DNA from: Haliangium sp.
Lineage (GTDB): Bacteria; Myxococcota_A; Polyangia; Haliangiales; Haliangiaceae
NCBI RefSeq assembly: GCF_050303215.1
Contig: NZ_JBNLBH010000019.1
Span: 128,001-149,096, forward strand
Reading direction: 5' to 3'
DNA length: 21,096 nucleotides
Shown: one piece after another, positions 1,906 through 20,491 of the stretch
Layout: each line of letters begins with the position of its first letter
Position numbering within the stretch: position 1 is the stretch's first letter
The notes under the pieces: generated by a model
The model's input: the letters and a program-made list of their open reading frames with translations, nothing else
The model's database searches: none
Told to the model about the DNA's origin: nothing
Position numbers and translations under genes: made by a program

Positions 1906-2015
1906 GACCGCGTAGCCTACGCCACGGCGTGCGGACGCGCGAGCCATCAAAGCGGTATGGTCCGGGCCATGTTCACCTGGGTCGCCCTACCTGGCCGCGC
2001 TCGCCGGAGCACGCG

Positions 2016-3614
2016 GTGATCCGCGACCTCCACCTCTTGGCGACCGCAGCCGCCGAGGCCTGCGCCGCCACCACCGACGCGGCCGAGAAGAAGTCCTGGG
2101 GCCAGTACTTCACCTCGGTCGAGGTAGCCGGGTTCATGGGCTCCCTCGTGGCTGTAGGCGCCGCGACGGCGCCGATCCGAGTGCTCGATCCCGGCGCGGG
2201 CACGGGCATCCTCGGCCTCGCCGCGGCCGCCGCCCTGCTCGCCCGGGGCGCCGAGGCGGTTCGGCTCACCGCGATCGAAGCGCACCCCGGGGCTCGCGCC
2301 CACCTCCACGAGTCGCTCCGGCTCGCCCGCGAGGCCAGCGCGGGCCGGCTCGACGCCAAGGTCATCGGCGCCGACTTCCTCGACCTGGCCCCGCCGGGCC
2401 TCGACGCCTCTCTATCCTCCGAGCCCTTCGACGTGGTGATCGCCAATCCACCCTACTTCAAGCTGAGCCCGCGCGACCGCCGCGGCGGCGACGCGCCCAA
2501 CATCTACGCCCGCTTCATGGAGATTTCGGCCGGGCTGCTGCGCGAGCGCGGCCAGCTCTTGTTCATCGTGCCGCGCAGCTTCGCCTCGGGCCGCTACTTC
2601 GAGCGCTTCCGCCGGGCGTTTCATCGCCGCATGAGCCTGCACCGCGTGCACGTCTTCGAGTCTCGGCGCGACCCGTTCAAGGCCCACGGCGTGCTGCAAG
2701 AGAACATCATCGTCGACTACCGCAAGGCCACGCGCGCCCCGTCGTCGGTCACGATCACTAGCTCGCGCGGCGCTCGTGATCTCGACCGACCGACCAAAGT
2801 CGAGGCCAGCCGGAGGCTGCTCCTGCCCGATCACGCACCCCACGCCGTCCTGCGCCTGCCCACATGCGACGAGGATCTGGCGCTGCTCGCCCGCCTAGAG
2901 CGATGGCGCGATGACCTCGGCAGCTACGGGCTCGCAGTATCCACCGGGCCGGTGGTGCCGTTCCGGGCCACGGACCAGCTCGTGCACACGGCGAGCGCCG
3001 CCACAGCGCCGCTGCTGTGGATGCAGCACGTGCGCGCGGGCCGAGTGACCTGGCCCCTCGGCGCCGGGTTCCGTAAACCCGAGCACATCATGCGCTCAGC
3101 CCCATCCAAGCTCCTGGTCACGAACCGCACCTATGTGCTCCTGCGCCGCATCTCCGCCAAAGAGGACCGGCGTCGGCTCACCGCCGCGGTGCTGCACGCA
3201 GGCGCCCTGCCCGGCGACGTACTCGGGCTGGAGAACCACCTCAACTTCATCCATCGCCCCGGCGGCGAGATCGACCAAAACGAGGCCACCGCCCTGGCCG
3301 CGCTGCTGAGCTCCTCGCTGTTCGACCGATACATCCGCATGGTGAGCGGAAGCACTCAGATCAACGCCACCGAGCTCCGGACGCTGCCGCTACCGCCGCG
3401 ACCGGACGTGATCGAGCTCGGCCGGCAGCTCCTGCGCCGACCCGAGCTCGCCCAGCAGACCCAGCTCGACGAGCTCATGCGAAGCCTGACCGGCGCCAAC
3501 ACCAATCCCCACGCGACGAGCCCGGGTGCTGCACCGCACGCGCCATCGCAACCGCCCAGAGAGACGGCGCACGCGGCGCGCCGACGCGTCAGCGATGCTC
3601 ATCGAGGCGGATGA
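2016..3614 (+). CDS. N6-adenine DNA methyltransferase, gamma-class (Eco57I/TaqI-like MTase domain plus C-terminal target-recognition region)
   Basis: Ordered motifs of the gamma-class N6-adenine methyltransferases are present: GQYFTS(VEVAGFM) (motif X), VLDPGAGTGILG (motif I, SAM binding) and VIANPPYFK (motif IV, catalytic NPPY). About 330 aa follow and probably form the target-recognition domain. The track ORF begins at GTG 1929 with no RBS and no in-frame ATG before the domain. GTG at 2016 is preceded by GGAG with a 6-nt spacer and leaves about 28 aa before motif X, so I prefer it. The true start is 1929 or 2016. The 3' end overlaps the convergent pafA-like gene by 26 nt. Confidence 0.8.
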   Translation: MIRDLHLLATAAAEACAATTDAAEKKSWGQYFTSVEVAGFMGSLVAVGAATAPIRVLDPGAGTGILGLAAAAALLARGAEAVRLTAIEAHPGARAHLHESLRLAREASAGRLDAKVIGADFLDLAPPGLDASLSSEPFDVVIANPPYFKLSPRDRRGGDAPNIYARFMEISAGLLRERGQLLFIVPRSFASGRYFERFRRAFHRRMSLHRVHVFESRRDPFKAHGVLQENIIVDYRKATRAPSSVTITSSRGARDLDRPTKVEASRRLLLPDHAPHAVLRLPTCDEDLALLARLERWRDDLGSYGLAVSTGPVVPFRATDQLVHTASAATAPLLWMQHVRAGRVTWPLGAGFRKPEHIMRSAPSKLLVTNRTYVLLRRISAKEDRRRLTAAVLHAGALPGDVLGLENHLNFIHRPGGEIDQNEATALAALLSSSLFDRYIRMVSGSTQINATELRTLPLPPRPDVIELGRQLLRRPELAQQTQLDELMRSLTGANTNPHATSPGAAPHAPSQPPRETAHAARRRVSDAHRGG

Positions 3615-5298
3615 CCTTGCCGGCAAAGGGTTTGCCGACCCGGATCCGGTCCCAAGACACCCTGACCTTGGCCTGACGGCGACCGAGCTCTCGGATCATG
3701 CGACTCCGGGCCCGGGCCGAGCCCGGTGACGGCGGATCGTGCATGGCCTGCGCGATCTCGTCCGGGCTCCATATGTGCGAGACCAGCCCGGCTCGGTCGA
3801 GGCGGGCGAAGTAACCACCGCCAAGCTCGTGGTACTTGAGGTCGATCTTCTTGCGCGCGGCCGGGCTCAGCTCGCGCCCGGCGGTGTCGAGCAGATAGCG
3901 CTTGGTGATCCAGTCGAGTTGGCCCAGTAGCGGGCTTTCGCTCACCTCGTGCTCGCCGCGGGCGAGCGCGTCGAGGGCGTCGAGCGTGCGCTGCCACAGC
4001 GCCAACAGCTCCACCGCCTCGATCGACGTCACCTCGGCCTGGTCCACGAAGGCCCGGGCTCGCTCCAGGTAGGCTCGCTGGATGTCGAGGGCGCGCATGG
4101 GCGAGCCGCCCACCACCTCCACCTCGGCCTGCAGGCTGGGGTCGGAGATGATGTGGCGCAGGGCCTCGACCGGCCGGCGCAGCCGCGGCAGACCGGCCAG
4201 GGCCCCAGCCTCGGCCATGTCGATGACCAGGGCGGTGGTGGCCAGCTTGAGGTAACCGGCGACCTGAGCTGGGTTGGCGTCGGCGAGGCCGAGCTGCATG
4301 CGCTGGCGGCGCCGGAATAGACCCAGGAACGAGCGCAGGTCGAGGTAGGCCACCCGCAGCGCGGCCTTGCACAGGTTGCCGGCGTCGAACACGGCGCGGT
4401 CATGCTGGCCTACCCACAGTCGCACCACCCGGCGGATCGTCGGGCCTTTTTCGGACAGTCCAAAAACGCCCTCGTCGTCGAGGGTGCCGGCGCCGGAGAG
4501 CACCGGCCGGGACATGAGGAAGGCCAGCCCATCCCGACGCACCCGGCGAAAGGCGACCAGCCGGAACAGCGCGAAGAATGGCCACAGCACCGGCGCCCAC
4601 AGCACGTGGCCATAGAGCACATATTCGATCCGGCCGAGCGCGCGCACGATCCGGCGCGACGGGGTAGTGAAGGCCACGGCCGCGGGCACGCCGCTCCGGC
4701 GCAGACTCGGGCTGACCACCGCCGCCAGGCCGACGCCGAAGAGCAGCACCAACCACGACACCGCCAGCGCCACGAAGCTAACCCAGCTCACCACCGCGCA
4801 CACCAGGATGATCGGGATCAGGGCGGCCACGCCCGCGCGCCATAGCCACAGCGTCGGGCCGGTCCCGATGTCGGCCTCGAAGTTCTCCTGGGCACCGTAG
4901 ACGTGCCCTTCGGCGTCGCGGCAGTTCTCCAGCAGGCCTAGGCTGCCGCGGTAGCCCTGATGGGCCAGGATGTGCTCGGCCGCGGGCAACGCCTGGATGA
5001 GCAGGGCCCGCTGCGCGCATTGATACAGCAGGCCTTCTTCGGGGCCACGGCACTCCGGGGTCGCGCCCTCGACCAGACCGCCGTCGGGGGCCGTGGGCAG
5101 ATACTCGTAGGCGAAGGCGCCCCCGTTCTCGACAAAGAACTGCTCGCGCGCCCAGTCCCCTTTGCGGGTCAGGACCAGGTCGCCGATAGCCTCCCGCACA
5201 GCGCCGTAGACCACGTTATTGTCGGGCGATTCACTGCCCGGCAGCGACGTGAAGCGGATCGCGTACTCGCTCTCCAGGCCCAGCAGGCGGCGCAGCAT
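3589..5298 (-). CDS. pafA: Pup-ligase/deamidase family protein (PafA/Dop homologue, glutamine-synthetase-like carboxylate-amine ligase fold) with a ~115-aa multi-helix hydrophobic insertion
   Basis: Direct similarity to Mycobacterium PafA along the whole length. Pairs (this ORF vs PafA): GLESEYAI vs GIETEYG (N-terminal catalytic Glu); ENGGAFAYEY...GATPEC vs [27 protein letters not shown] vs YGCHENY; FLMSRPVLSGAGT vs FLVTRQLICGAGK; ALDIQRAYLERA vs ALDIQREYYTRA; QLDWITKRYLL vs EIDWVIKRKLF; IDLKYHEL vs LDLAYHDI; DEIAQAMHDPP...ARARSRMI vs EEIAEAVDQPP...TRARLRGEFI. Between the HENY-like motif and the GAGK-like motif, residues ~146-262 (nt 4513-4863) replace PafA's ~18-aa loop with three to four strongly hydrophobic helix-length segments. 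The ATG at 5298 is preceded by GAGGGG. Stop codon at 3589-3591. Confidence 0.75.
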   Translation of the reverse strand: MLRRLLGLESEYAIRFTSLPGSESPDNNVVYGAVREAIGDLVLTRKGDWAREQFFVENGGAFAYEYLPTAPDGGLVEGATPECRGPEEGLLYQCAQRALLIQALPAAEHILAHQGYRGSLGLLENCRDAEGHVYGAQENFEADIGTGPTLWLWRAGVAALIPIILVCAVVSWVSFVALAVSWLVLLFGVGLAAVVSPSLRRSGVPAAVAFTTPSRRIVRALGRIEYVLYGHVLWAPVLWPFFALFRLVAFRRVRRDGLAFLMSRPVLSGAGTLDDEGVFGLSEKGPTIRRVVRLWVGQHDRAVFDAGNLCKAALRVAYLDLRSFLGLFRRRQRMQLGLADANPAQVAGYLKLATTALVIDMAEAGALAGLPRLRRPVEALRHIISDPSLQAEVEVVGGSPMRALDIQRAYLERARAFVDQAEVTSIEAVELLALWQRTLDALDALARGEHEVSESPLLGQLDWITKRYLLDTAGRELSPAARKKIDLKYHELGGGYFARLDRAGLVSHIWSPDEIAQAMHDPPSPGSARARSRMIRELGRRQAKVRVSWDRIRVGKPFAGKVIRLDEHR

Positions 5299-5322
5299 GG
5301 CCCCTCGGACACACGCCGGGGG

Positions 5323-5499
5323 CTACTCGCCGCCCTCGGGAACCACGGTCTCGCGCAAGTACGCCTCGGCCCCCTCGACGGCGTCGACGGCGATCTCGGC
5401 CACCGCCTCGGCGACCCGATCACGGGCCGACGGCGCCGCGCTGTCGTCATCCCGCCGGAGGTCACGGGCAACATTCGATGGAGTGTGAGCAGGTCGCAT
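5323..5499 (-). CDS. pup: Pup-like prokaryotic ubiquitin-like protein, 58 aa, C-terminal Gly-Gly-Glu
   Basis: The ATG at 5499 is preceded by a strong RBS (CAGGAGAGACTC-ATG). It encodes MRPAHTPSNVARDLRRDDDSAAPSARDRVAEAVAEIAVDAVEGAEAYLRETVVPEGGE. The C-terminal third aligns with Mycobacterium Pup (EIDDVLEENAEDFVRAYVQKGGQ vs EIAVDAVEGAEAYLRETVVPEGGE): an acidic helix, AE-x-[FY]-[VL]-R-x-x-V and a terminal GG[QE]. The N-terminal half is low-complexity and acidic, like Pup. The track ORF starts at an upstream GTG (5529) with no RBS. The gene ends 24 nt upstream of the pafA-like gene on the same strand. Confidence 0.65.
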   Translation of the reverse strand: MRPAHTPSNVARDLRRDDDSAAPSARDRVAEAVAEIAVDAVEGAEAYLRETVVPEGGE

Positions 5500-5503
5500 G
5501 AGT

Positions 5504-5510
5504 CTCTCCT
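5504..5510 (-). promoter_or_regulatory. Shine-Dalgarno (AGGAGAG) for the pup-like gene
   Basis: The plus-strand CTCTCCT at 5504-5510 is AGGAGAG on the minus strand, 4 nt upstream of the ATG at 5499. Confidence 0.5.
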
Positions 5511-5883
5511 GGCTGACGTCAACCGACACAGGCCGATACGCGCAGATCGCGCCGACTGGACAGTCCGTCCCGTACGAGGCTCAGTGTACAGGGTCCCGCC
5601 CACGTTGGCCACGACCACGCAACGTCGGCCCGGCCTGACCTAGCCCCGCCGCGGCGTGTCCCGACCACACCATGGACCGAACTTCGTCCCCGGCCTCGCC
5701 TCGGGCCGCCAGGCTGGCCTAGACAGCACTCGATCTGTTCATCCGTCGCGGCACCTACACTGGAATGCACACCGATCTTTCTCGCCAGAGCAGCTTGGTG
5801 GCCGCCCCCAACCAGCGTCTGTATCTCAATGACAGCCGACTGCCGTCACGCGACGTACACACCGGCAAGACATGTACGTCGTC

Positions 5884-6933
5884 TCAGGTATCCGAACTCA
5901 TCACCTCAGCGACGCTTCCGGCCGCGAACAGGCGCTCGTACCACGTGTCGAGTTCAGCCTGGTCGGCCGCCTTGATGCGGGCCTGCGCCGCCCGTGAGAC
6001 CCGTCCGAATCGGGCCCTCAGCAACCGGATGAGCCGCTCCTGCTCGGCCTCACGACGACCCTGCTGTTGGCCTTCCTTCCGGCCCTTTTCGAGACCCTGT
6101 TCGAGGCCCTGTTCGCGGCTCTTGTAGACGATCTCGTCGTAGGTGTTCGTAAACACTTGGTGTGCCATGGGACTGACCTCGGTCTTCAGGAAGCGAGCCA
6201 TGTGCTCTCGCTCGATGCGGGCAACGCTCATAGTATACGTGAACAGCATGCCCAGGGCAGCCACTCCGGAGGGGGCCTCGGCCAGGTCCGCGAGCAGGGT
6301 TGCGATGTCGCGACCCATCGCGGCCAATAGGTCTGGCTCGCGACGGGCGTAAGTGAGCGCCCACAAGATCACCTGCGGAATCGCGCCACTCACTCGCTGC
6401 CACAGGGCCTCATCGTCATCGGGCAGCAATTCCTCCAGCACGAACGCATACCGCGGCAGGTGCTCGCCAATGGCGTCGAGCGTCCGGTGCGGGCAGTCGT
6501 ACACCTCGTCCATCGTGATCGATGCACGCCAGGGGATGCCGTGGTACATGACGATAGGCAGGATCACGGGCACTCGGATCGCGTCGGGGTGCTCGCTGCG
6601 GTGCTCGTCCCAGATCGCGCTCAGGTAACGCAGGATGCGTACCGGCATCAGCACCTGGGGCTTGCTCTGGTGTTCCATCAGCACGTAGATGTACGCCTTG
6701 CTCGGAGCACCCGCGTCGTCATCAGCGGCGGCGTCCAGGGGCACGCGCATGAGCAGATCCGTGAGCTGCTCGCGCAGGTGCTCGTCGATGAAGGTCCGCT
6801 TCTCTACCTTCACACGACGAAAATCGACCTGCCCAGATAGCCCACGCGGTAGCAACGCTCGGAGCAATGCGCGGGCGTTCCGAGGTTTTGAGAAAATGCC
6901 TCGAAACAGCCGATCATGTGGTGTGCTAACCAT
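5884..6933 (-). CDS. Rpn-family (YhgA-like / Transposase_31) PD-(D/E)XK recombination-promoting nuclease
   Basis: The N-terminus TPHDRLFRGIFSKPRNARALLRALLP closely matches the E. coli RpnA N-terminus ([26 protein letters not shown]), and the YVLMEHQS core motif matches IYVLIEHQS. The C-terminal region has the family's Gly-spaced repeats (EQGLEQGLEKGRKEGQQQGRREAEQERLIRLLRARFG). The ATG at 6933 is preceded by AGGGGA with a 5-nt spacer. The gene's GC content is visibly lower (~60%) than neighbouring genes. Confidence 0.85.
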   Translation of the reverse strand: MVSTPHDRLFRGIFSKPRNARALLRALLPRGLSGQVDFRRVKVEKRTFIDEHLREQLTDLLMRVPLDAAADDDAGAPSKAYIYVLMEHQSKPQVLMPVRILRYLSAIWDEHRSEHPDAIRVPVILPIVMYHGIPWRASITMDEVYDCPHRTLDAIGEHLPRYAFVLEELLPDDDEALWQRVSGAIPQVILWALTYARREPDLLAAMGRDIATLLADLAEAPSGVAALGMLFTYTMSVARIEREHMARFLKTEVSPMAHQVFTNTYDEIVYKSREQGLEQGLEKGRKEGQQQGRREAEQERLIRLLRARFGRVSRAAQARIKAADQAELDTWYERLFAAGSVAEVMSSDT

Positions 6934-7222: not shown

Positions 7223-8566
7223 CTAGGGGGCGCAGCCTACGGCGCCGGCGTCGGTCGAGGGCGGGGGGCTGAGGACCGGGCTGCCGGTGAGCTGGCAGTC
7301 GGTGTTGGCGTTGAGGCGGATGCGGCCCACGCTGCCACCGCCACCACCGCCGCCGGCGTCGGGGCCGGGGCCACCGACGCCAGCGTTGCCGTTGTTGGGG
7401 GGGGACGTGCCGGCGCCGCCGTTGCCGCCGTCACCGCCGCTGGCTGAGCCGTCGCGTCCGCCCTTGGCCATGAGCGCGTCGTTACTCCGGCCGTCGTCGC
7501 CGGAGTTCTCCAGGTCGGAGTCGTTCTCCGAGCCGCCCTCGCCACCTCCGCCGCCGTTGGCGGTCACGGCCGCGCTGTTGCCAATGCGGAGGGAGTCGGC
7601 CTCGAGCAGGACGGAGCCGCCGGAGCCGCCACCGCCGCCGCCGTCACGCAGCGCGCCGCCTCCTCCACCGCCGCCAGCCGCGCTGATGAACGCGCCGACG
7701 CTGAGTTGATCGGCAGCCGAGATCTGGATCCCGCCGCCACCTCCACCGCCGTTGCCACCACTGCTGAAGTCACCTGCGCCGCCGTGGCCGCCGGCGCAGC
7801 CGCCGCGCAGGGGCACGATGGCGTCGTTGCCGTTGGCCTGGCCGCCATCGCCGCGGTTCGCGTTGCTGCCGCCCTGGCCGCCCAGGGCGCCGTTGGTGCT
7901 GTAGCCGCCGCCTCCTCCGCCTCCTCCGTTGTCGCCGTTCTTGAAGCCGTCCTGGCCGGTGCCGCCGCCGCTGCCACTGGTGCCGCATACGCTCGCGAGG
8001 GAGCCGCCGGGACCGGGCGTACTGCCCGTGGCTCCGGCGTCGAGGTTGCCATCGATGGTGGCGTCGCCGAAGACGGCAAAGATCACCGAGCGATTGCCGA
8101 CGAGGGTAAGCGAGCCGGTGGCCGTGATCGTGACGTCGAGCATGGGCAGGATGACCAGGTCGCTGCTCGTAACCGGGACCGGCTCGGGCTGGCCGCACCA
8201 CTGAGTGAAGGTCGCGGTGGTCGAGTCGAAGGTGGCGGCGCAGTCAAGAGAGACTGCCACCGTCGGGGTCAAAGTGTCGGGATCGAAATTGCTCGGAACG
8301 TAGGGGAAGGGCGGAGCCGGCACTGCGTCCAGCGGCGCAGCATCCGGCGGGGCCGCGTCGGGCCCCCCGGCGCCGGGGCTTGCATCGGGGCTGTCGGCAT
8401 CAGGACCCATGGGAGGCTCGGCATCGATCGGGTCCGTCCCGCCATCTGCCTGGCGCGAGGGCAGATCCTCGATGCCCAGGGCCTGCACGCAGCCACCCAG
8501 CGCAACCGTCAACGCCAGACATCCGCCGGCAAACTTAGCCATCGTTCTCGTACCGCTTGTCGTCAT
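7223..8566 (-). CDS. Glycine-rich secreted lipoprotein (low-complexity poly-Gly/Asn/Ser blocks; possible beta-helical surface protein)
   Basis: The N-terminus (MTTSGTRT)MAKFAGGCLALTVALGGCVQ is a lipoprotein signal with an LGGC lipobox; the alternative ATG at 8542 gives the same signal. The mature protein begins with a Pro/Asp/Ala-rich linker, followed by ~300 aa dominated by Gly runs (GGGGGGGG, GGGGGGG) interspersed with N, S, D and short hydrophobic stretches, ending ...DCQLTGSPVLSPPPSTDAGAVGCAP. The gene is same-strand and 20 nt downstream of the preceding gene. Confidence 0.7.
   Translation of the reverse strand: MTTSGTRTMAKFAGGCLALTVALGGCVQALGIEDLPSRQADGGTDPIDAEPPMGPDADSPDASPGAGGPDAAPPDAAPLDAVPAPPFPYVPSNFDPDTLTPTVAVSLDCAATFDSTTATFTQWCGQPEPVPVTSSDLVILPMLDVTITATGSLTLVGNRSVIFAVFGDATIDGNLDAGATGSTPGPGGSLASVCGTSGSGGGTGQDGFKNGDNGGGGGGGGYSTNGALGGQGGSNANRGDGGQANGNDAIVPLRGGCAGGHGGAGDFSSGGNGGGGGGGIQISAADQLSVGAFISAAGGGGGGGALRDGGGGGGSGGSVLLEADSLRIGNSAAVTANGGGGGEGGSENDSDLENSGDDGRSNDALMAKGGRDGSASGGDGGNGGAGTSPPNNGNAGVGGPGPDAGGGGGGGSVGRIRLNANTDCQLTGSPVLSPPPSTDAGAVGCAP
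7397..7404 (-). repeat. G8 homopolymer on the plus strand (C8 on the coding strand) inside the Gly-rich lipoprotein gene
   Basis: The plus strand reads GTTGTTGGGGGGGGACG. It encodes ...GTSPPNN... (ggc acg tcc ccc ccc aac aac). This is an 8-nt homopolymer within a coding sequence. Confidence 0.6.
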
Positions 8567-8586: not shown

Positions 8587-9615
8587 TCAGAACCGCCACG
8601 AGGCCTGGACCCCGTTCCACTGCTGGCCGATGACCGGCTCGATCCGCACGCCGGACGCAGTCTCTGTCGGGGCAGGTGACTGCTCGGGGGCGTTCATGAA
8701 CCACAGCGCGACCCCGGCGCCGAGCCCGACCACGCCGACGATCAAGGACGCTGTGGCCAGGTTGGCGTCGCCGCGGGCGTCGCTGCGCAGGGCCTGGCTG
8801 GCGTCGTAGTCCGCGATCGCGCAGGTCATGTACTCGTCGACGGTGCACAGGTCTTCGGCGTCTCTGTATCGGCCCCGGGCGCGCAAGCCGAACACGACAC
8901 CGACGATGACACCGGCCGCGCCCACGGCGCCGCTGCCGAGCGCGAGCTTGCGGCCGAGCGGCATCGGGGTGCCTTCGCCGCGTTCCACGTCATCCACGCC
9001 GGCCGGCGTGACCGGAACGACAGGCGACTCGGGCTCGGACACTGCGACCTCGAACTCGGGCACGGTGACGCGCTCGGTGCTGCCCGCGCCGGCGACGGTC
9101 ACGGTGACCTCGAAGGGCTCGGCGTCGGGCACTTGGGCGGTGATGACGTGCTGGCCGGGATCGACGGCGATGGGCTGGCCCCACTGCGCCGGGTCCACGA
9201 TCACGTCGCCGCGTCGCACGGTCGGCGCGCCGTGCCGCGCGCTCTCCGTCACCTCGATCACCAGGAACGAGAGCTGCGGCGCCAGCGCGGCGATCTGCTC
9301 TTCGGCGTAGGCGGCGCGCTGCTCATCATCGGCTTCGCGGGCCATGGCCTGGGCGCGCCGATACACCTCGACCGCGGTGGCTGGTTGCTGGTTGAGTTCG
9401 CGGCACTTGGCCAGGTTGAGCAGGGCGCCGACGCTGGCCTCGGCCTCGTGGCTGGCTTCGAACTTGCTGCACGCCTCGGCGAACTTCCTCTGCGCGAGCA
9501 GCTCGCGTCCTTCTTCGAACAGGCGGTCGGCCTCGGTCTGCTGGGCCCAGCTCAGGCTCGGCAAGAAGCAGACCACGAACAAGACCGTCATGGCGCATCG
9601 ATGCAGTGTCCCCAT
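8587..9615 (-). CDS. Secreted protein with N-terminal TPR-like helical pair, PEGA-like beta domain and two C-terminal hydrophobic helices
   Basis: The ATG at 9615 is preceded by AGGGGA with a 5-nt spacer. The signal peptide is MGTLHRCAMTVLFVVCFLPSLSWA|QQ. The mature N-terminus (ADRLFEEGRELLAQRKFAEACSKFEAS...LLNLAKCREL...AVEVYRRAQAMA) is TPR-like. The middle (VRRGDVIVDPAQWGQPIAVDPGQHVITAQVPDAEPFEVTVTV) resembles a PEGA beta-sandwich. Two hydrophobic segments follow (LALGSGAVGAAGVIVGVVFGL; LATASLIVGVVGLGAGVALWF). The gene is same-strand and 24 nt downstream of the kinase gene. Confidence 0.6.
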   Translation of the reverse strand: MGTLHRCAMTVLFVVCFLPSLSWAQQTEADRLFEEGRELLAQRKFAEACSKFEASHEAEASVGALLNLAKCRELNQQPATAVEVYRRAQAMAREADDEQRAAYAEEQIAALAPQLSFLVIEVTESARHGAPTVRRGDVIVDPAQWGQPIAVDPGQHVITAQVPDAEPFEVTVTVAGAGSTERVTVPEFEVAVSEPESPVVPVTPAGVDDVERGEGTPMPLGRKLALGSGAVGAAGVIVGVVFGLRARGRYRDAEDLCTVDEYMTCAIADYDASQALRSDARGDANLATASLIVGVVGLGAGVALWFMNAPEQSPAPTETASGVRIEPVIGQQWNGVQASWRF

Positions 9616-9639: not shown

Positions 9640-11913
9640 CTAACGACCTTGCAGCGCGGGATCGTTAATCTCTTTCATGATGGCCGGCTGCTTGGGCTCC
9701 AACTCGACCCCGTGCCGCAGGCAGACCTGGGCCAGCGCGGCTCGGCGCGCGCGCGGCGTCCGCTTGTAGTATCGCTTTGCTCGGCCCTCGTCCTTCAGCG
9801 AGCACGCGGCCATCCCGCATATCGTGAGCGCATCTCGATTCCGGGGCTCGAGTTCCAGCGCATCGTTGCAGTGCCGAAGGGCGACGCCGTACTGCCCGCT
9901 CTTGGCGGCCGTCCGGGCATCGTCCATCAACTCATCGACCCGCTTCTTGCGCTGCACGGGCGACGGTCGCGATGGTTGCTTCGTCTCGGCCTCGGCCTTG
10001 GCCGCACGGCGGCAATCGTCCGCGGCCGTGGCGGCCTCGTCCCATTCGTCCGGCATCGCCTTGGCCAACTCGGCCAGGTCGTCACAAGCGTGGGCGCGCG
10101 CGTGCTTTGTCACCTTTTCGACCACCTCGGCGTGGGCTCGCTCGTAGGCCCCGCGGGCCTGGTCGTACACGACCGAGCCCTCTTCGATGGCGAGCAGGTG
10201 CTCGCGCGCAGCTTTGTACTGCTGGGCATCGAGCGCCTCGCCCATCGCGGCCAGGGCCTTGGCGAACCGCGCCTCTCTCGTCGCGGTGTCCACCAAGGAC
10301 TTCGCCTGCTCGTGGTTCGGATCGCCGGCCAGGATCTCCTTGCCGAGACGCTGTGCCGTCGCCCAGTCGTGCTCGCCGAGCGCTCGCTTCGCCGCCGCGA
10401 GCGCGGCCTCGCCGTCGTCCGCCCCGATGCCCTCTCCGCCGGCACCGGCCGCGGCCTGGGCCTCCTGCTCGGCCGCCTCTTCCGGGCTGACCGCGGCGCT
10501 CGGTTCACCGATGTCAGACTGCTCGGGCAGCAACACGACCGGCTCCGAGGGTTCCTCCGAGGGCCAGAGTGCAGCCACGCCGACCACGCCGACCAGCACT
10601 GACGCCGACACGGTCACGAGGAGTCGCCGCCGCCGCGGCCGCTGCGATACCGGCAGCCGCTGGGAGGCGGCCGTGCGCAGCGTCGTCTGTCCGCCCGATG
10701 CAGCGGCATGCCCAACCGGCGATGAAGCCCCGGCCGCGGCCCACGGCTGGGCAGCGGCGCCGGAAGCATGCGGCTGGTATCCGTCATGGGACGGTGCACG
10801 CGCCGGCGTCCGGGCCGGGTCAGGTCCCGTGGCCGCCTGGGGTGGCACCCGCACGGCGGGGATCCCCTGCGGCACGGTGGCCACCGGCGGGGCGCTGCTC
10901 GCTCGCCTAGGGGCGCCGGGGGTTACCGCAGCCGGTCCGGGGGAGGCGATGGGCGCCGAGGCCCGGGCGGCGACCGGCTCGCCATCCTCATCCCACCGCT
11001 TTTGCTGCGGCACACGCTGCGTAGGTCCGTGGGGATCGTACTCCGGCGGCGGCGCCAGCGAGGGAGCGCGGCGAAACGCCCGCAGCGCTTCCCCGAACTC
11101 GGCGATCGTGGCGTAGCGCTCGTCGGGCGCCTTGGCCATGCCCTTGGCGACGATGGCCTCGAGCGCGGGCGGCACCGAGGGCTCGAACCGGCGCATGGGC
11201 GGCAGCGGCTCCTTCATGTGCCCGACGATCATGTCGCCCGCGCCTTCGCCGATGAAGGGCGGCCGCCCGCACACGGTTCGGAACAGCACGCAGGCCAGCG
11301 AGTAGATATCGCTGCGGTGATCGACCCGGCCGGCGCCGCGGCACTGCTCGGGCGACATATAGGCCGGGGTGCCCATCATGCTGCCGGTGCTGGTCAACAA
11401 GTTGCCGCCGGTCAAGGGCTCGGCCAGCTTGGCGATGCCAAAGTCGAGGATCTTGGACCGCTCGCCGGCCTCCATCTCCTCGTCGGAGGCCAGGAAGATG
11501 TTACCGGGCTTGAGGTCGCGGTGAACGATGCCGGCCTCGTGCGCGGCCGCCAACGCGCTGGCGCACTGGCGCACGATGCGGACCGCGTCGGACACCGGTA
11601 TGCGCTTCACCCGGCGCAACCGCTCCTCCAGGGACTCGCCGTGGAGCAGCTCCATCACGATGTAGGCGCTGTTGTCGGTGTGATAGTCGAAGTCGGAGAT
11701 CTTGACGATGCCGGGGTGATTGACGGCCCCGGAGGCGCGCGCCTCGTTGAAGAAGCGCTGCACGATCTCGGGCTTCTGGGACAGCTCGGGCTTGAGCATC
11801 TTGAGCGCGACGTTGCCCCCGATGCGGGTGTGCTCGGCGAGATAGACCATCCCCATCCCGCCGGTGCCGAGTACTTTGATGAGGCGATAGCGCCCCACTG
11901 TTTGGCCAAGCAT
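9640..11913 (-). CDS. Hanks-type Ser/Thr protein kinase with single TM segment and C-terminal (periplasmic) TPR/Sel1-like repeat domain
   Basis: Kinase subdomains are present: G-loop LGTGGMGMVYLA, VAIK-like VALKML, catalytic loop HRDLKPGNIFL, DFG (DFGIA), APE-like (PAYMSPEQ) and a subdomain XI Arg. This is followed by a Pro/Ala-rich linker, the TM segment RRRRLLVTVSASVLVGVVGVAALW, then about 300 aa of helical repeats. The track ORF starts at TTG 11979. The first ATG (11913, MLGQTVGRYRLIKVLG...) leaves 6 aa before the G-loop and is my preferred start. Confidence 0.85.
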   Translation of the reverse strand: MLGQTVGRYRLIKVLGTGGMGMVYLAEHTRIGGNVALKMLKPELSQKPEIVQRFFNEARASGAVNHPGIVKISDFDYHTDNSAYIVMELLHGESLEERLRRVKRIPVSDAVRIVRQCASALAAAHEAGIVHRDLKPGNIFLASDEEMEAGERSKILDFGIAKLAEPLTGGNLLTSTGSMMGTPAYMSPEQCRGAGRVDHRSDIYSLACVLFRTVCGRPPFIGEGAGDMIVGHMKEPLPPMRRFEPSVPPALEAIVAKGMAKAPDERYATIAEFGEALRAFRRAPSLAPPPEYDPHGPTQRVPQQKRWDEDGEPVAARASAPIASPGPAAVTPGAPRRASSAPPVATVPQGIPAVRVPPQAATGPDPARTPARAPSHDGYQPHASGAAAQPWAAAGASSPVGHAAASGGQTTLRTAASQRLPVSQRPRRRRLLVTVSASVLVGVVGVAALWPSEEPSEPVVLLPEQSDIGEPSAAVSPEEAAEQEAQAAAGAGGEGIGADDGEAALAAAKRALGEHDWATAQRLGKEILAGDPNHEQAKSLVDTATREARFAKALAAMGEALDAQQYKAAREHLLAIEEGSVVYDQARGAYERAHAEVVEKVTKHARAHACDDLAELAKAMPDEWDEAATAADDCRRAAKAEAETKQPSRPSPVQRKKRVDELMDDARTAAKSGQYGVALRHCNDALELEPRNRDALTICGMAACSLKDEGRAKRYYKRTPRARRAALAQVCLRHGVELEPKQPAIMKEINDPALQGR

Positions 11914-12031
11914 CCTGTCCGGCAGGGTACCACGCCTGTCTCGGTTCAAGAACCTCTCTGTTCGTTCTGACCGTATCAAGCCGTACCAAGGCTACACCGC
12001 CCGCCCCGGGCCGCTCCGGACGGGAGGCTGC

Positions 12032-20491
<8,460 letters not shown>

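Follow-up and report, generated by a model that had tools for sequence, protein, structure and literature searches.

Does a PafA-like ligase with a long hydrophobic segment beside its active site act at the membrane, and what would it tag there? The question is raised by a 21,096-nucleotide stretch of Haliangium sp. (contig NZ_JBNLBH010000019.1, positions 128,001 to 149,096; hereafter, the window), in which a gene of the Pup_ligase family encodes a protein of 569 amino acids (3589..5298, minus strand). A preliminary description of the window had proposed a membrane-embedded Pup ligase. Family membership, the conservation and composition of the insert and the predicted fold favored that proposal; the novelty it implied for a PafA/Dop protein with transmembrane (TM) segments did not hold, as such proteins were described computationally in 2008 by Iyer, Burroughs and Aravind (Biol Direct 3:45; PMC2588565). 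The window protein is thus a Haliangium sp. addition to a clade predicted at that time and is not new in kind. Our preferred reading, to which we assign a probability of about 65% on the basis of sequence, structural models and analogy, is that the gene forms part of a two-gene, proteasome-independent pupylation-like module, whose membrane-tethered ligase would join the terminal Glu of a small protein tag to lysines of membrane-proximal proteins.

The identity of the ligase gene was established from the open reading frame (ORF) listing, Pfam, an AlphaFold2 (AF2) model and Foldseek. Its product matched Pfam Pup_ligase (PF03136) with E=1.2e-62 and 212.8 bits (cut-off 25) over profile positions 1-440 of 441, and was 100% identical to an NCBI entry named 'proteasome accessory factor PafA2 family protein [Haliangium sp.]'. 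The AF2 model, computed from a 112-sequence alignment, had a mean predicted local distance difference test (pLDDT) score of 94.5 and a predicted template modelling (pTM) score of 0.93, and the model of P0078, a Vicinamibacteria orthologue 48% identical to it, reached 93.7 and 0.93, respectively. When the AF2 model was searched against the PDB with Foldseek, the top matches were Dop (4b0r, 7oxy, 5lrt) and PafA (4bjr, 4b0t), with E values of 2e-26 to 4e-18 and target-normalised template modelling scores (TM-scores) of 0.72-0.84, and YbdK/GCS2-type ligases were more distant matches. Both the glutamine-synthetase-like beta-sheet cradle and the family-specific C-terminal domain were present in the model. 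Judged from the Pfam match, the modelled fold and the active-site motifs, the protein genuinely belongs to the PafA/Dop family; its catalytic fold is predicted to be intact around the insert, a point that the preliminary description had left to structure prediction.

The hydrophobic insertion had been placed at 4513..4863 (minus strand), that is, residues 146-262 of the protein, and proved to be real. In an alignment of the 112-orthologue profile with Corynebacterium glutamicum PafA, residue 143 paired with PafA residue 134 and residue 250 with PafA residue 141, with ~106 residues in the ligase occupying the place of ~6 in PafA. The insertion proper, as delimited by this profile alignment and by orthologue alignments, comprises residues 144-249 (4552..4869, minus strand) and is bounded on one side by the active-site strand YGAQENF, numbered beta6 in PafA structures and called 'core strand 4' by Iyer et al., and on the other by the helix leading into FLMSRPVLSGAG. 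The flanking motifs YGAQENF and FLMSRPVLSGAGT aligned with YGCHENY and FLITRQLICGAG of PafA/Dop, and their homology, which the preliminary description had assumed, was upheld by formal profile alignment.

The insert was present in every member of alignments of 20, 112 and 10 sequences. The best 120 database relatives, almost all of which cover 96-100% of the query, are 512-720 amino acids long except for one partial entry. The distance from YGxQENY to (S/T)Rx4GxG was 109-143 residues (median 121) in 171 orthologues, showing that the insertion is lineage-wide, and an uncharged run of at least 35 residues was kept in 158 of 178 sequences. A search with the insert alone against 1.84 billion representatives matched seven proteins, six being full-length Pup-ligase-family members with the match at the same position and the seventh a protein of 350 amino acids; all matches whose full length is known belong to this ligase family, and the insert is accordingly neither a mobile domain nor a shared one. 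An assembly chimera or frameshift artefact as the origin of the insertion has a practically negligible probability. It is in frame, its base composition is uniform with that of its flanks (G+C ~70-77% throughout the window, unbroken at the insert), and the same insert occurs at the same site in ~180 independent orthologues from isolates and metagenome-assembled genomes (MAGs) of several phyla. With the frame intact and the insert lineage-wide, it is neither a frameshift, as had been argued from the window by itself, nor a chimera, and the assembly-artefact reading was rejected on orthologue conservation.

Most of the hydrophobicity resides in an uncharged block, AGVAALIPIILVCAVVSWVSFVALAVSWLVLLFGVGLAAVVSPSL (residues 155-199; 4702..4836, minus strand), recognised from composition and the AF2 model. 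This block is a 45-residue run without Asp, Glu, Lys or Arg in a protein whose remainder is 26% charged, and only ~0.0007 such runs would be expected per protein. Kyte-Doolittle 19-residue windows exceeded 1.6 across residues 148-200 and 232-250, and the summed insertion free energy was negative only in the uncharged block. Beyond it lies an amphipathic Arg-rich helix, RRIVRALGRIEYVLYGHVL (residues 215-233; 4600..4656, minus strand), supported by the hydrophobic moment (0.57, at a mean hydrophobicity of 0.00), AF2 and weak covariation, and then a moderately hydrophobic aromatic/proline helix (residues 235-250) with an RRVRR cluster (residues 251-255; 4534..4596 for both, minus strand), delineated by hydropathy, the Lys/Arg profile, AF2 and weak covariation. 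These two helices form the first and second halves of the return arm of a hairpin in the AF2 model, and the RRVRR cluster is proposed from sequence to be a positively charged cytoplasmic flank.

Conservation within the insert was restricted to few positions. Among the 112 orthologues, only G147, L150, R154, P162, R200 (89%), P236, R254 and the R251/R252/R255 cluster were conserved, with R154 and R254 invariant and P162 and P236 nearly so. Invariant R154 precedes the uncharged block and R200 comes after it, and residues 155-197 carried scarcely any charge in these orthologues, though the sequence varied (L/V/I/A/F). The Arg-rich flanks pointed out in the preliminary description (R154, R200 and R251-R255) are therefore conserved features; the three to four separate hydrophobic segments it described were instead one long block (~155-197), one amphipathic Arg-rich helix (215-233) and one moderately hydrophobic helix (232-250).

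Conserved hydrophobicity with freely varying residues, bracketed by arginines, is the pattern of lipid-facing helices with interface arginines, and the block at residues 155-199 is probably a lipid-embedded segment, as predicted from composition and the model. We also considered that the hairpin may not be in the membrane at all, being buried as the helical-bundle core of a soluble homo-oligomer or binding a hydrophobic partner. The AF2 helices of 35-48 residues are too long for one bilayer crossing, the return arm is amphipathic, and PafA can dimerise (PMC12053664), all of which would suit such an arrangement. However, buried cores are usually conserved in sequence, whereas here hydrophobicity alone is conserved; moreover, the R154 and RRxRR brackets resemble membrane-interface flanks, and TM segments were predicted by Iyer et al. 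too (PMC2588565). A soluble hairpin is thus very improbable in our view.

Inspection of the two AF2 models indicated that the insert forms one long antiparallel hairpin of two ~48-residue helices. The outgoing arm comprised helices 147-159/161-195 and the returning arm helices 215-233/235-248/251-263 in the window protein, and the corresponding arms in P0078 were 147-194 and 214-245/248-260. Covariation was evaluated by mean-field direct coupling analysis (DCA) with an effective number of sequences of ~111. Five of the top 45 pairs (156-244, 160-241, 174-238, 185-216 and 188-220) fell on the long-hairpin diagonal versus ~2 by chance, a weak signal, and none of these 45 pairs fell on the diagonal of an internal 155-175/177-197 hairpin.

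We infer membrane insertion and the number of passes from hydropathy and the models, and three topologies were compared. Given that a single catalytic domain must fold, both ends of the insert must lie on one side of the membrane. In the first topology, derived from hydropathy and the positive-inside rule, the chain would pass twice within residues 155-197 and turn very tightly on the outer side around the conserved W172, residues 198-223 would form an Arg-rich cytoplasmic loop, helix 215-233 would be interfacial and amphipathic, and residues 232-250 would be peripheral or re-entrant. The second, with four TM segments, is that stated by Iyer et al. (PMC2588565). The third is the long two-helix hairpin, which the two AF2 models and the weak covariation suggestively favor. 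For the window insert, hydropathy gave one ~43-residue block and one weaker segment and AF2 gave two long helices, versus the four TM segments of Iyer et al. All three topologies would put the catalytic domain at the cytoplasmic face, between R154 and RRxRR.

The candidate tag is encoded immediately upstream of the ligase, by a gene that was absent from the preliminary description and that strengthens the ligase reading. This Pup-like gene (5323..5499, minus strand) encodes 58 amino acids from ATG 5499, MRPAHTPSNVARDLRRDDDSAAPSARDRVAEAVAEIAVDAVEGAEAYLRETVVPEGGE, and was defined from the ORF listing, start context and conservation. The mechanically called ORF (5323..5529) begins at a GTG at 5529 and has 68 amino acids; ATG 5499 is the likely start as judged from the sequence, and a Shine-Dalgarno-like AGGAGA (5505..5510, minus strand; a consensus match only) is located 5 nucleotides upstream of it. 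The small protein is acidic with a largely low-complexity N-terminus, and its C-terminus (...AEAYLRETVVPEGGE*) ends in VPEGGE, with the stop codon 24 nucleotides before the ligase ATG. Corynebacterium-type Pup shares the GGE end. We refer to the small protein as Pup-like on the basis of its size (within 50-90 amino acids), its GGE end (GG-E/Q in Pup), its position adjoining a PafA-family gene, and the report of Iyer et al. that iterative searches recover such small proteins as Pup orthologues (PMC2588565).

An upstream GGE-ending ORF with the same arrangement and C-terminal motif was found in five loci reached via protein look-ups. A genome scan with one genome per species yielded 77 loci, of which L067 (without upstream sequence) and L083 (insert-less) were excluded, leaving 75 assessable insert-bearing loci. 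The GGE-ending ORF was detected upstream in 72 of them, i.e., 70 loci with the ORF a few to ~400 nucleotides upstream, together with L059 and the frameshifted L077. The C-terminal consensus was L-x2-[IV]-x2-D-[AS]-x6-Y-[LA]-x-[ED]-[ST]-x-V-P-x-G-G-E, with GGE invariant in the alignment, and the partner terminated in Glu, not Gln, at every locus found. At L077 (~5900..5990), a frameshift or stop separates the Pup-like ORF (…RDRYLKETVVPEGGE*) from its N-terminal part, which lies in another frame (…FFEIEEDARRLK); the locus comes from a long-read MAG, and a sequencing error is likely, the alternative being a pseudogene. As a separate observation, the window Pup-like protein has no lysine and could not be tagged on itself; several orthologous Pup-like proteins contain lysines, and high G+C favors Arg over Lys, so the lack of lysine may mean nothing.

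The active site was compared with those of PafA and Dop. Residues E9 and E11 (GxExE), E77 and E82 (PEC), N125, D128, Y134-G135, E138, R264, G269, G271, R333, D340, R531 and W549 were invariant in the 112 orthologues. R531 and W549 fall in the C-terminal stretch that aligns with the C-terminal domain of PafA, which provides the nucleotide contacts R418 and W440 (PMC12053664). Glu65 (codon at 5104..5106, minus strand), invariant in the family, aligned with the catalytic Asp of PafA (LYLD64VG in the C. glutamicum chain 4b0t; N in the 4bjr chain), and this Asp of the beta3-beta4 loop is the catalytic base or nucleophile of PafA/Dop (PMC3511204). Family alignments also showed that Gln137 (Gln137-Glu138 codons at 4885..4890, minus strand) replaces the His of YGCHENY and is invariant in the 112 sequences, as is Glu138; the Rhodopirellula-type orthologue L073 retains C-H at this motif position. 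On these alignments, Glu65 and Gln137 are clade-specific active-site substitutions.

The window ligase resembles PafA (4B0T, 4BJR) in its two-domain fold, its active-site strands, the motifs GxExE, PEYAT-EC, KNxxD, YGxxEN, TR-x4-GAG and RRLxxxxGD, and in having no Dop loop, but it shares only ~19% identity with PafA and differs by ~105 extra hydrophobic residues after beta6 and by Glu for Asp and Gln for His. Its sequence and Foldseek scores were best to Dop (4B0R, 5LRT, 7OXY; E 2e-26, target-normalised TM-score ~0.8), with a well-conserved C-terminal domain; unlike Dop, it is missing the ~40-residue Dop loop, its partner needs no deamidation, and its score with the Dop equivalog TIGR03688 (124.6 bits) stayed below the cut-off of 492.3. 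This loop precedes beta2 in Dop (PMC12053664) and was not found in the AF2 model or in the profile alignments to PafA and Dop. The model has ~11 residues between helix 27-41 and strand 53-56, and the N-terminal half aligned contiguously with PafA 9-134, where the Dop alignment breaks.

These comparisons bear on whether the enzyme, instead of being a dedicated ligase, is a Dop-like hydrolase (depupylase/deamidase) or works in both directions. Sequence and fold scores slightly better to Dop than to PafA would agree with a hydrolase, the active sites of PafA and Dop are nearly identical (PMC12053664, PMC3511204), and with a single family member at the locus, one enzyme may do both jobs if tagging is reversible. 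We nevertheless consider this unlikely, given the missing Dop loop, a Glu-ended partner at every locus found, which makes deamidation superfluous, and the fact that a hydrolase without a ligase in a conserved module would have nothing to act on.

To return to the preferred pupylation-like module, the GGE-ending ORF is the only conserved neighbor of the ligase gene, and the conserved unit consists of two genes. An all-vs-all BLAST of the ORFs from 83 loci detected no conserved third gene; besides spurious antisense ORFs, the ligase alone recurred. No proteasome subunit, Mpa/AAA unfoldase or Dop was found among the scanned ORFs of the 21-kb window. PafA, in contrast, is linked to pup, dop, mpa/arc and usually prcBA, of which the 83 loci conserve a Pup-like ORF only. 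In UBact/Pup systems (Nitrospirae, Verrucomicrobia and others), a small Glu/Gln-ended tag likewise lies beside PafA-family genes outside Actinobacteria. At such loci, proteasome and AAA ATPase genes are linked to the tag and ligase genes, and the ligases have no hydrophobic insert (PMC2588565). Compared by description, the window module differs from these loci in both respects, proteasome linkage and the insert-less ligase.

The 77 species-level loci were from Myxococcota / 'Deltaproteobacteria' (n = 24), Planctomycetota (n = 23), Acidobacteriota (n = 16), Spirochaetota (n = 3), Verrucomicrobiota (n = 1), unclassified 'bacterium' MAGs (n = 7), the oddly labelled MAGs L063 and L080 (n = 2), and Latescibacterota (L083, with a canonical enzyme without the insert; n = 1). 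The insert is thus conserved in at least five phyla, i.e., Myxococcota, Acidobacteriota, Planctomycetota, Spirochaetota and Verrucomicrobiota. Two ligases, P0113 (659 amino acids) and P0115 (720 amino acids), have long Pro/Thr/Asp-rich low-complexity C-terminal extensions that are absent from other family members, with repeated 'AATRD/AATHD' units in that of P0115.

A different substrate was also considered. Instead of protein lysines, the membrane-tethered enzyme might use a non-protein amine at the membrane surface (e.g., the phosphatidylethanolamine head group) as acceptor for the terminal Glu of the small protein, in a bacterial counterpart to Atg8 lipidation. Carboxylates are ligated to a range of amines within the superfamily, as in glutamine synthetase and the gamma-glutamyl-cysteine ligases (PMC2588565), and YbdK/GCS2-type ligases were among the Foldseek matches. 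In addition, the insert emerges beside an active-site strand, which would position catalysis close to a surface where primary amines abound; neither a conserved protein substrate nor downstream machinery is encoded near the module in the 83 loci; and E65 and Q137 depart from the catalytic residues of PafA. PafA-family enzymes, however, are known solely as protein-lysine ligases or amidases, and we regard ligation to a non-protein amine as very unlikely. A related proposal, that the small protein is attached not, or not only, to lysines but to an inner-leaflet lipid amine such as phosphatidylethanolamine, seems extremely unlikely; if true, it would give bacteria a protein tag anchored to lipid, analogous but not homologous to Atg8/LC3 lipidation, and would explain a module without a proteasome, unfoldase or conserved protein partner. 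The YbdK/GCS2 ligases themselves (1R8G, 1TT4) have the glutamine-synthetase-like core in common with the window ligase (Foldseek E 6e-5 to 9e-4) and were proposed by Iyer et al. as the evolutionary source of Pup ligases (PMC2588565), but they have no PafA/Dop C-terminal domain, no protein substrate and only ~9% identity.

In the membrane-tethered pupylation that we favor, the reaction would follow that of PafA, which proceeds in two steps via a gamma-glutamyl-phosphate on the terminal Glu of the tag (PMC3511204). The gamma-carboxylate of the terminal Glu of the small protein would be phosphorylated in an ATP/Mg2+-dependent manner, and attack by a lysine epsilon-amine would then yield the isopeptide bond. 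As the tag is encoded with a terminal Glu and the enzyme has no Dop loop, no deamidase step would be needed. The hairpin of the insert, with its hydrophobic outgoing arm of ~43 residues and its R154 and R251-R255 brackets, would be inserted into the inner membrane, keeping the catalytic domain, otherwise intact, on the cytoplasmic side, and this tethering would confine tagging to membrane or membrane-proximal proteins. The outcome would probably be regulatory, or delivery to a non-proteasomal protease. We infer ligase rather than hydrolase activity, the neighboring ORF as substrate and the identity of the targets by analogy with characterised members of the family.

Several results weigh against this reading. 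The 569-residue protein scored 148 bits with the PafA equivalog TIGR03686, not reaching the cut-off of 551.3. The Glu in place of the catalytic Asp and the Gln in place of the motif His could, as far as alignments indicate, alter chemistry or specificity. A continuous hydrophobic helix of 43-48 residues in the AF2 model is about twice the bilayer thickness, so the long-hairpin topology would mean that the hairpin is strongly tilted, lies in the plane of the membrane (monotopic) or oligomerises, and in a simple two-pass model drawn from this hairpin the Arg-rich residues 198-223 would be on the wrong side. The small ORF had no match in Pfam or NCBIfam (including Pup, PF05639), and PHROGs was also empty. 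A 42-sequence profile of the Pup-like C-termini matched nothing, Pup chains included, among all PDB sequences at E<=10, and an hhalign comparison with Mycobacterium tuberculosis Pup gave a probability of 1.4%, with a plausible register that was not significant. Finally, an adjoining GGE ORF was not found at the Rhodopirellula-type planctomycete loci L073, L075 and L082, where no ORF ending in GG[EQ] was present in the 6-13 kb fetched; these loci may represent a sub-clade in which the tag gene is elsewhere or lost.

The ligases analysed by Iyer et al. in Plesiocystis and Rhodopirellula have the hydrophobic insertion in the same position, directly following core strand 4 on its C-terminal side, with an adjacent Pup gene and no linkage to proteasome genes, and the functional proposal favored here was already made for them (PMC2588565). 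The orthologue of Plesiocystis pacifica SIR-1 (L079) shared 46-49% identity with residues 1-569 of the window protein, the insert being included in the alignment, and that of Rhodopirellula sp. (L073) was 33-34% identical. The 2008 account differs from ours in having four TM segments and a linked membrane-protein gene (PMC2588565), whereas a two-helix hairpin is favored here and a third gene is not conserved. The searchable literature yielded no study of the clade after 2008, whether experimental or computational, and a 2012 review of the pathway made no mention of a Pup-ligase clade with a TM insert. Our analysis adds to that account the breadth of the clade, the two-gene limit, the C-terminal motif of the tag, Glu65/Gln137 and the long-hairpin models.

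Nearly all work on pupylation has treated it as a route to the proteasome in Actinobacteria. By prediction, this clade packages the same chemistry as a minimal two-gene, membrane-tethered module in five phyla, with no proteasome, Mpa or Dop linked. The module is carried by cultured bacteria (Plesiocystis pacifica SIR-1, Chondromyces apiculatus DSM 436, Paraliomyxa miuraensis, Pseudenhygromyxa sp. and Roseiconus nitratireducens), making the role of pupylation without a proteasome directly testable. A Pup ligase with a natural membrane anchor could also be of interest for proximity labelling with PafA (PUP-IT).

The membrane-protein linkage reported in 2008 may correspond to one locus. In L079 of P. 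pacifica SIR-1, an ORF upstream of the Pup-like gene (3968..5644, plus strand) has a C-terminal half that, on reading of the sequence and with no profile match, resembles a seven-helix BAX-inhibitor-1/YccA membrane protein. In Escherichia coli, YccA is a substrate and modulator of FtsH. The L079 ORF is probably the 'membrane protein' linked to the module by Iyer et al.; this linkage was not conserved at other loci, and neither a comparable ORF nor any other membrane-protein gene was detected beside the module in the window.

The remaining ORFs of the window encode an Eco57I-like methyltransferase, a YhgA/Rpn-like nuclease, a Ser/Thr kinase with tetratricopeptide repeats (TPRs), a 2819-residue TPR protein and two proteins without family matches. 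The Eco57I-like / N6-adenine DNA methyltransferase (1929..3614, plus strand; Pfam Eco57I E=1e-12, with weak partial matches to the Alw26I family and BREX PglX) is convergent with the ligase gene, whose 3' end it overlaps by 26 bp in the mechanical ORF call; the window revealed no restriction partner for it. The YhgA/Rpn-like 'Transposase_31' PD-(D/E)XK nuclease with a DUF4351 tail (5884..6933, minus strand) is encoded directly upstream of the Pup-like ORF. The module here is accordingly flanked by mobile- or defence-type genes, which other loci do not have beside the module. Between the YhgA-like gene and the Ser/Thr protein kinase (9640..11979, minus strand), whose TPR region is C-terminal, are two successive ORFs (447 and 342 amino acids; 7223..8566 and 8587..9615, minus strand) without Pfam, NCBIfam or PHROGs matches, and the giant TPR-repeat protein, of a type typical of Myxococcota, is encoded at 12032..20491 (minus strand).

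Ser/Thr kinase genes were located at most 6 kb from the Pup module in 14 loci, the window among them, and L010, L029 and L058 have one directly downstream of the ligase; we judged this proximity to be compatible with chance from the abundance of kinases in such genomes. Two terminator-like hairpins in the coding region of the ligase (4428-4444 and 4484-4469) were likewise attributed to chance, with 2 found versus 0.7 expected.

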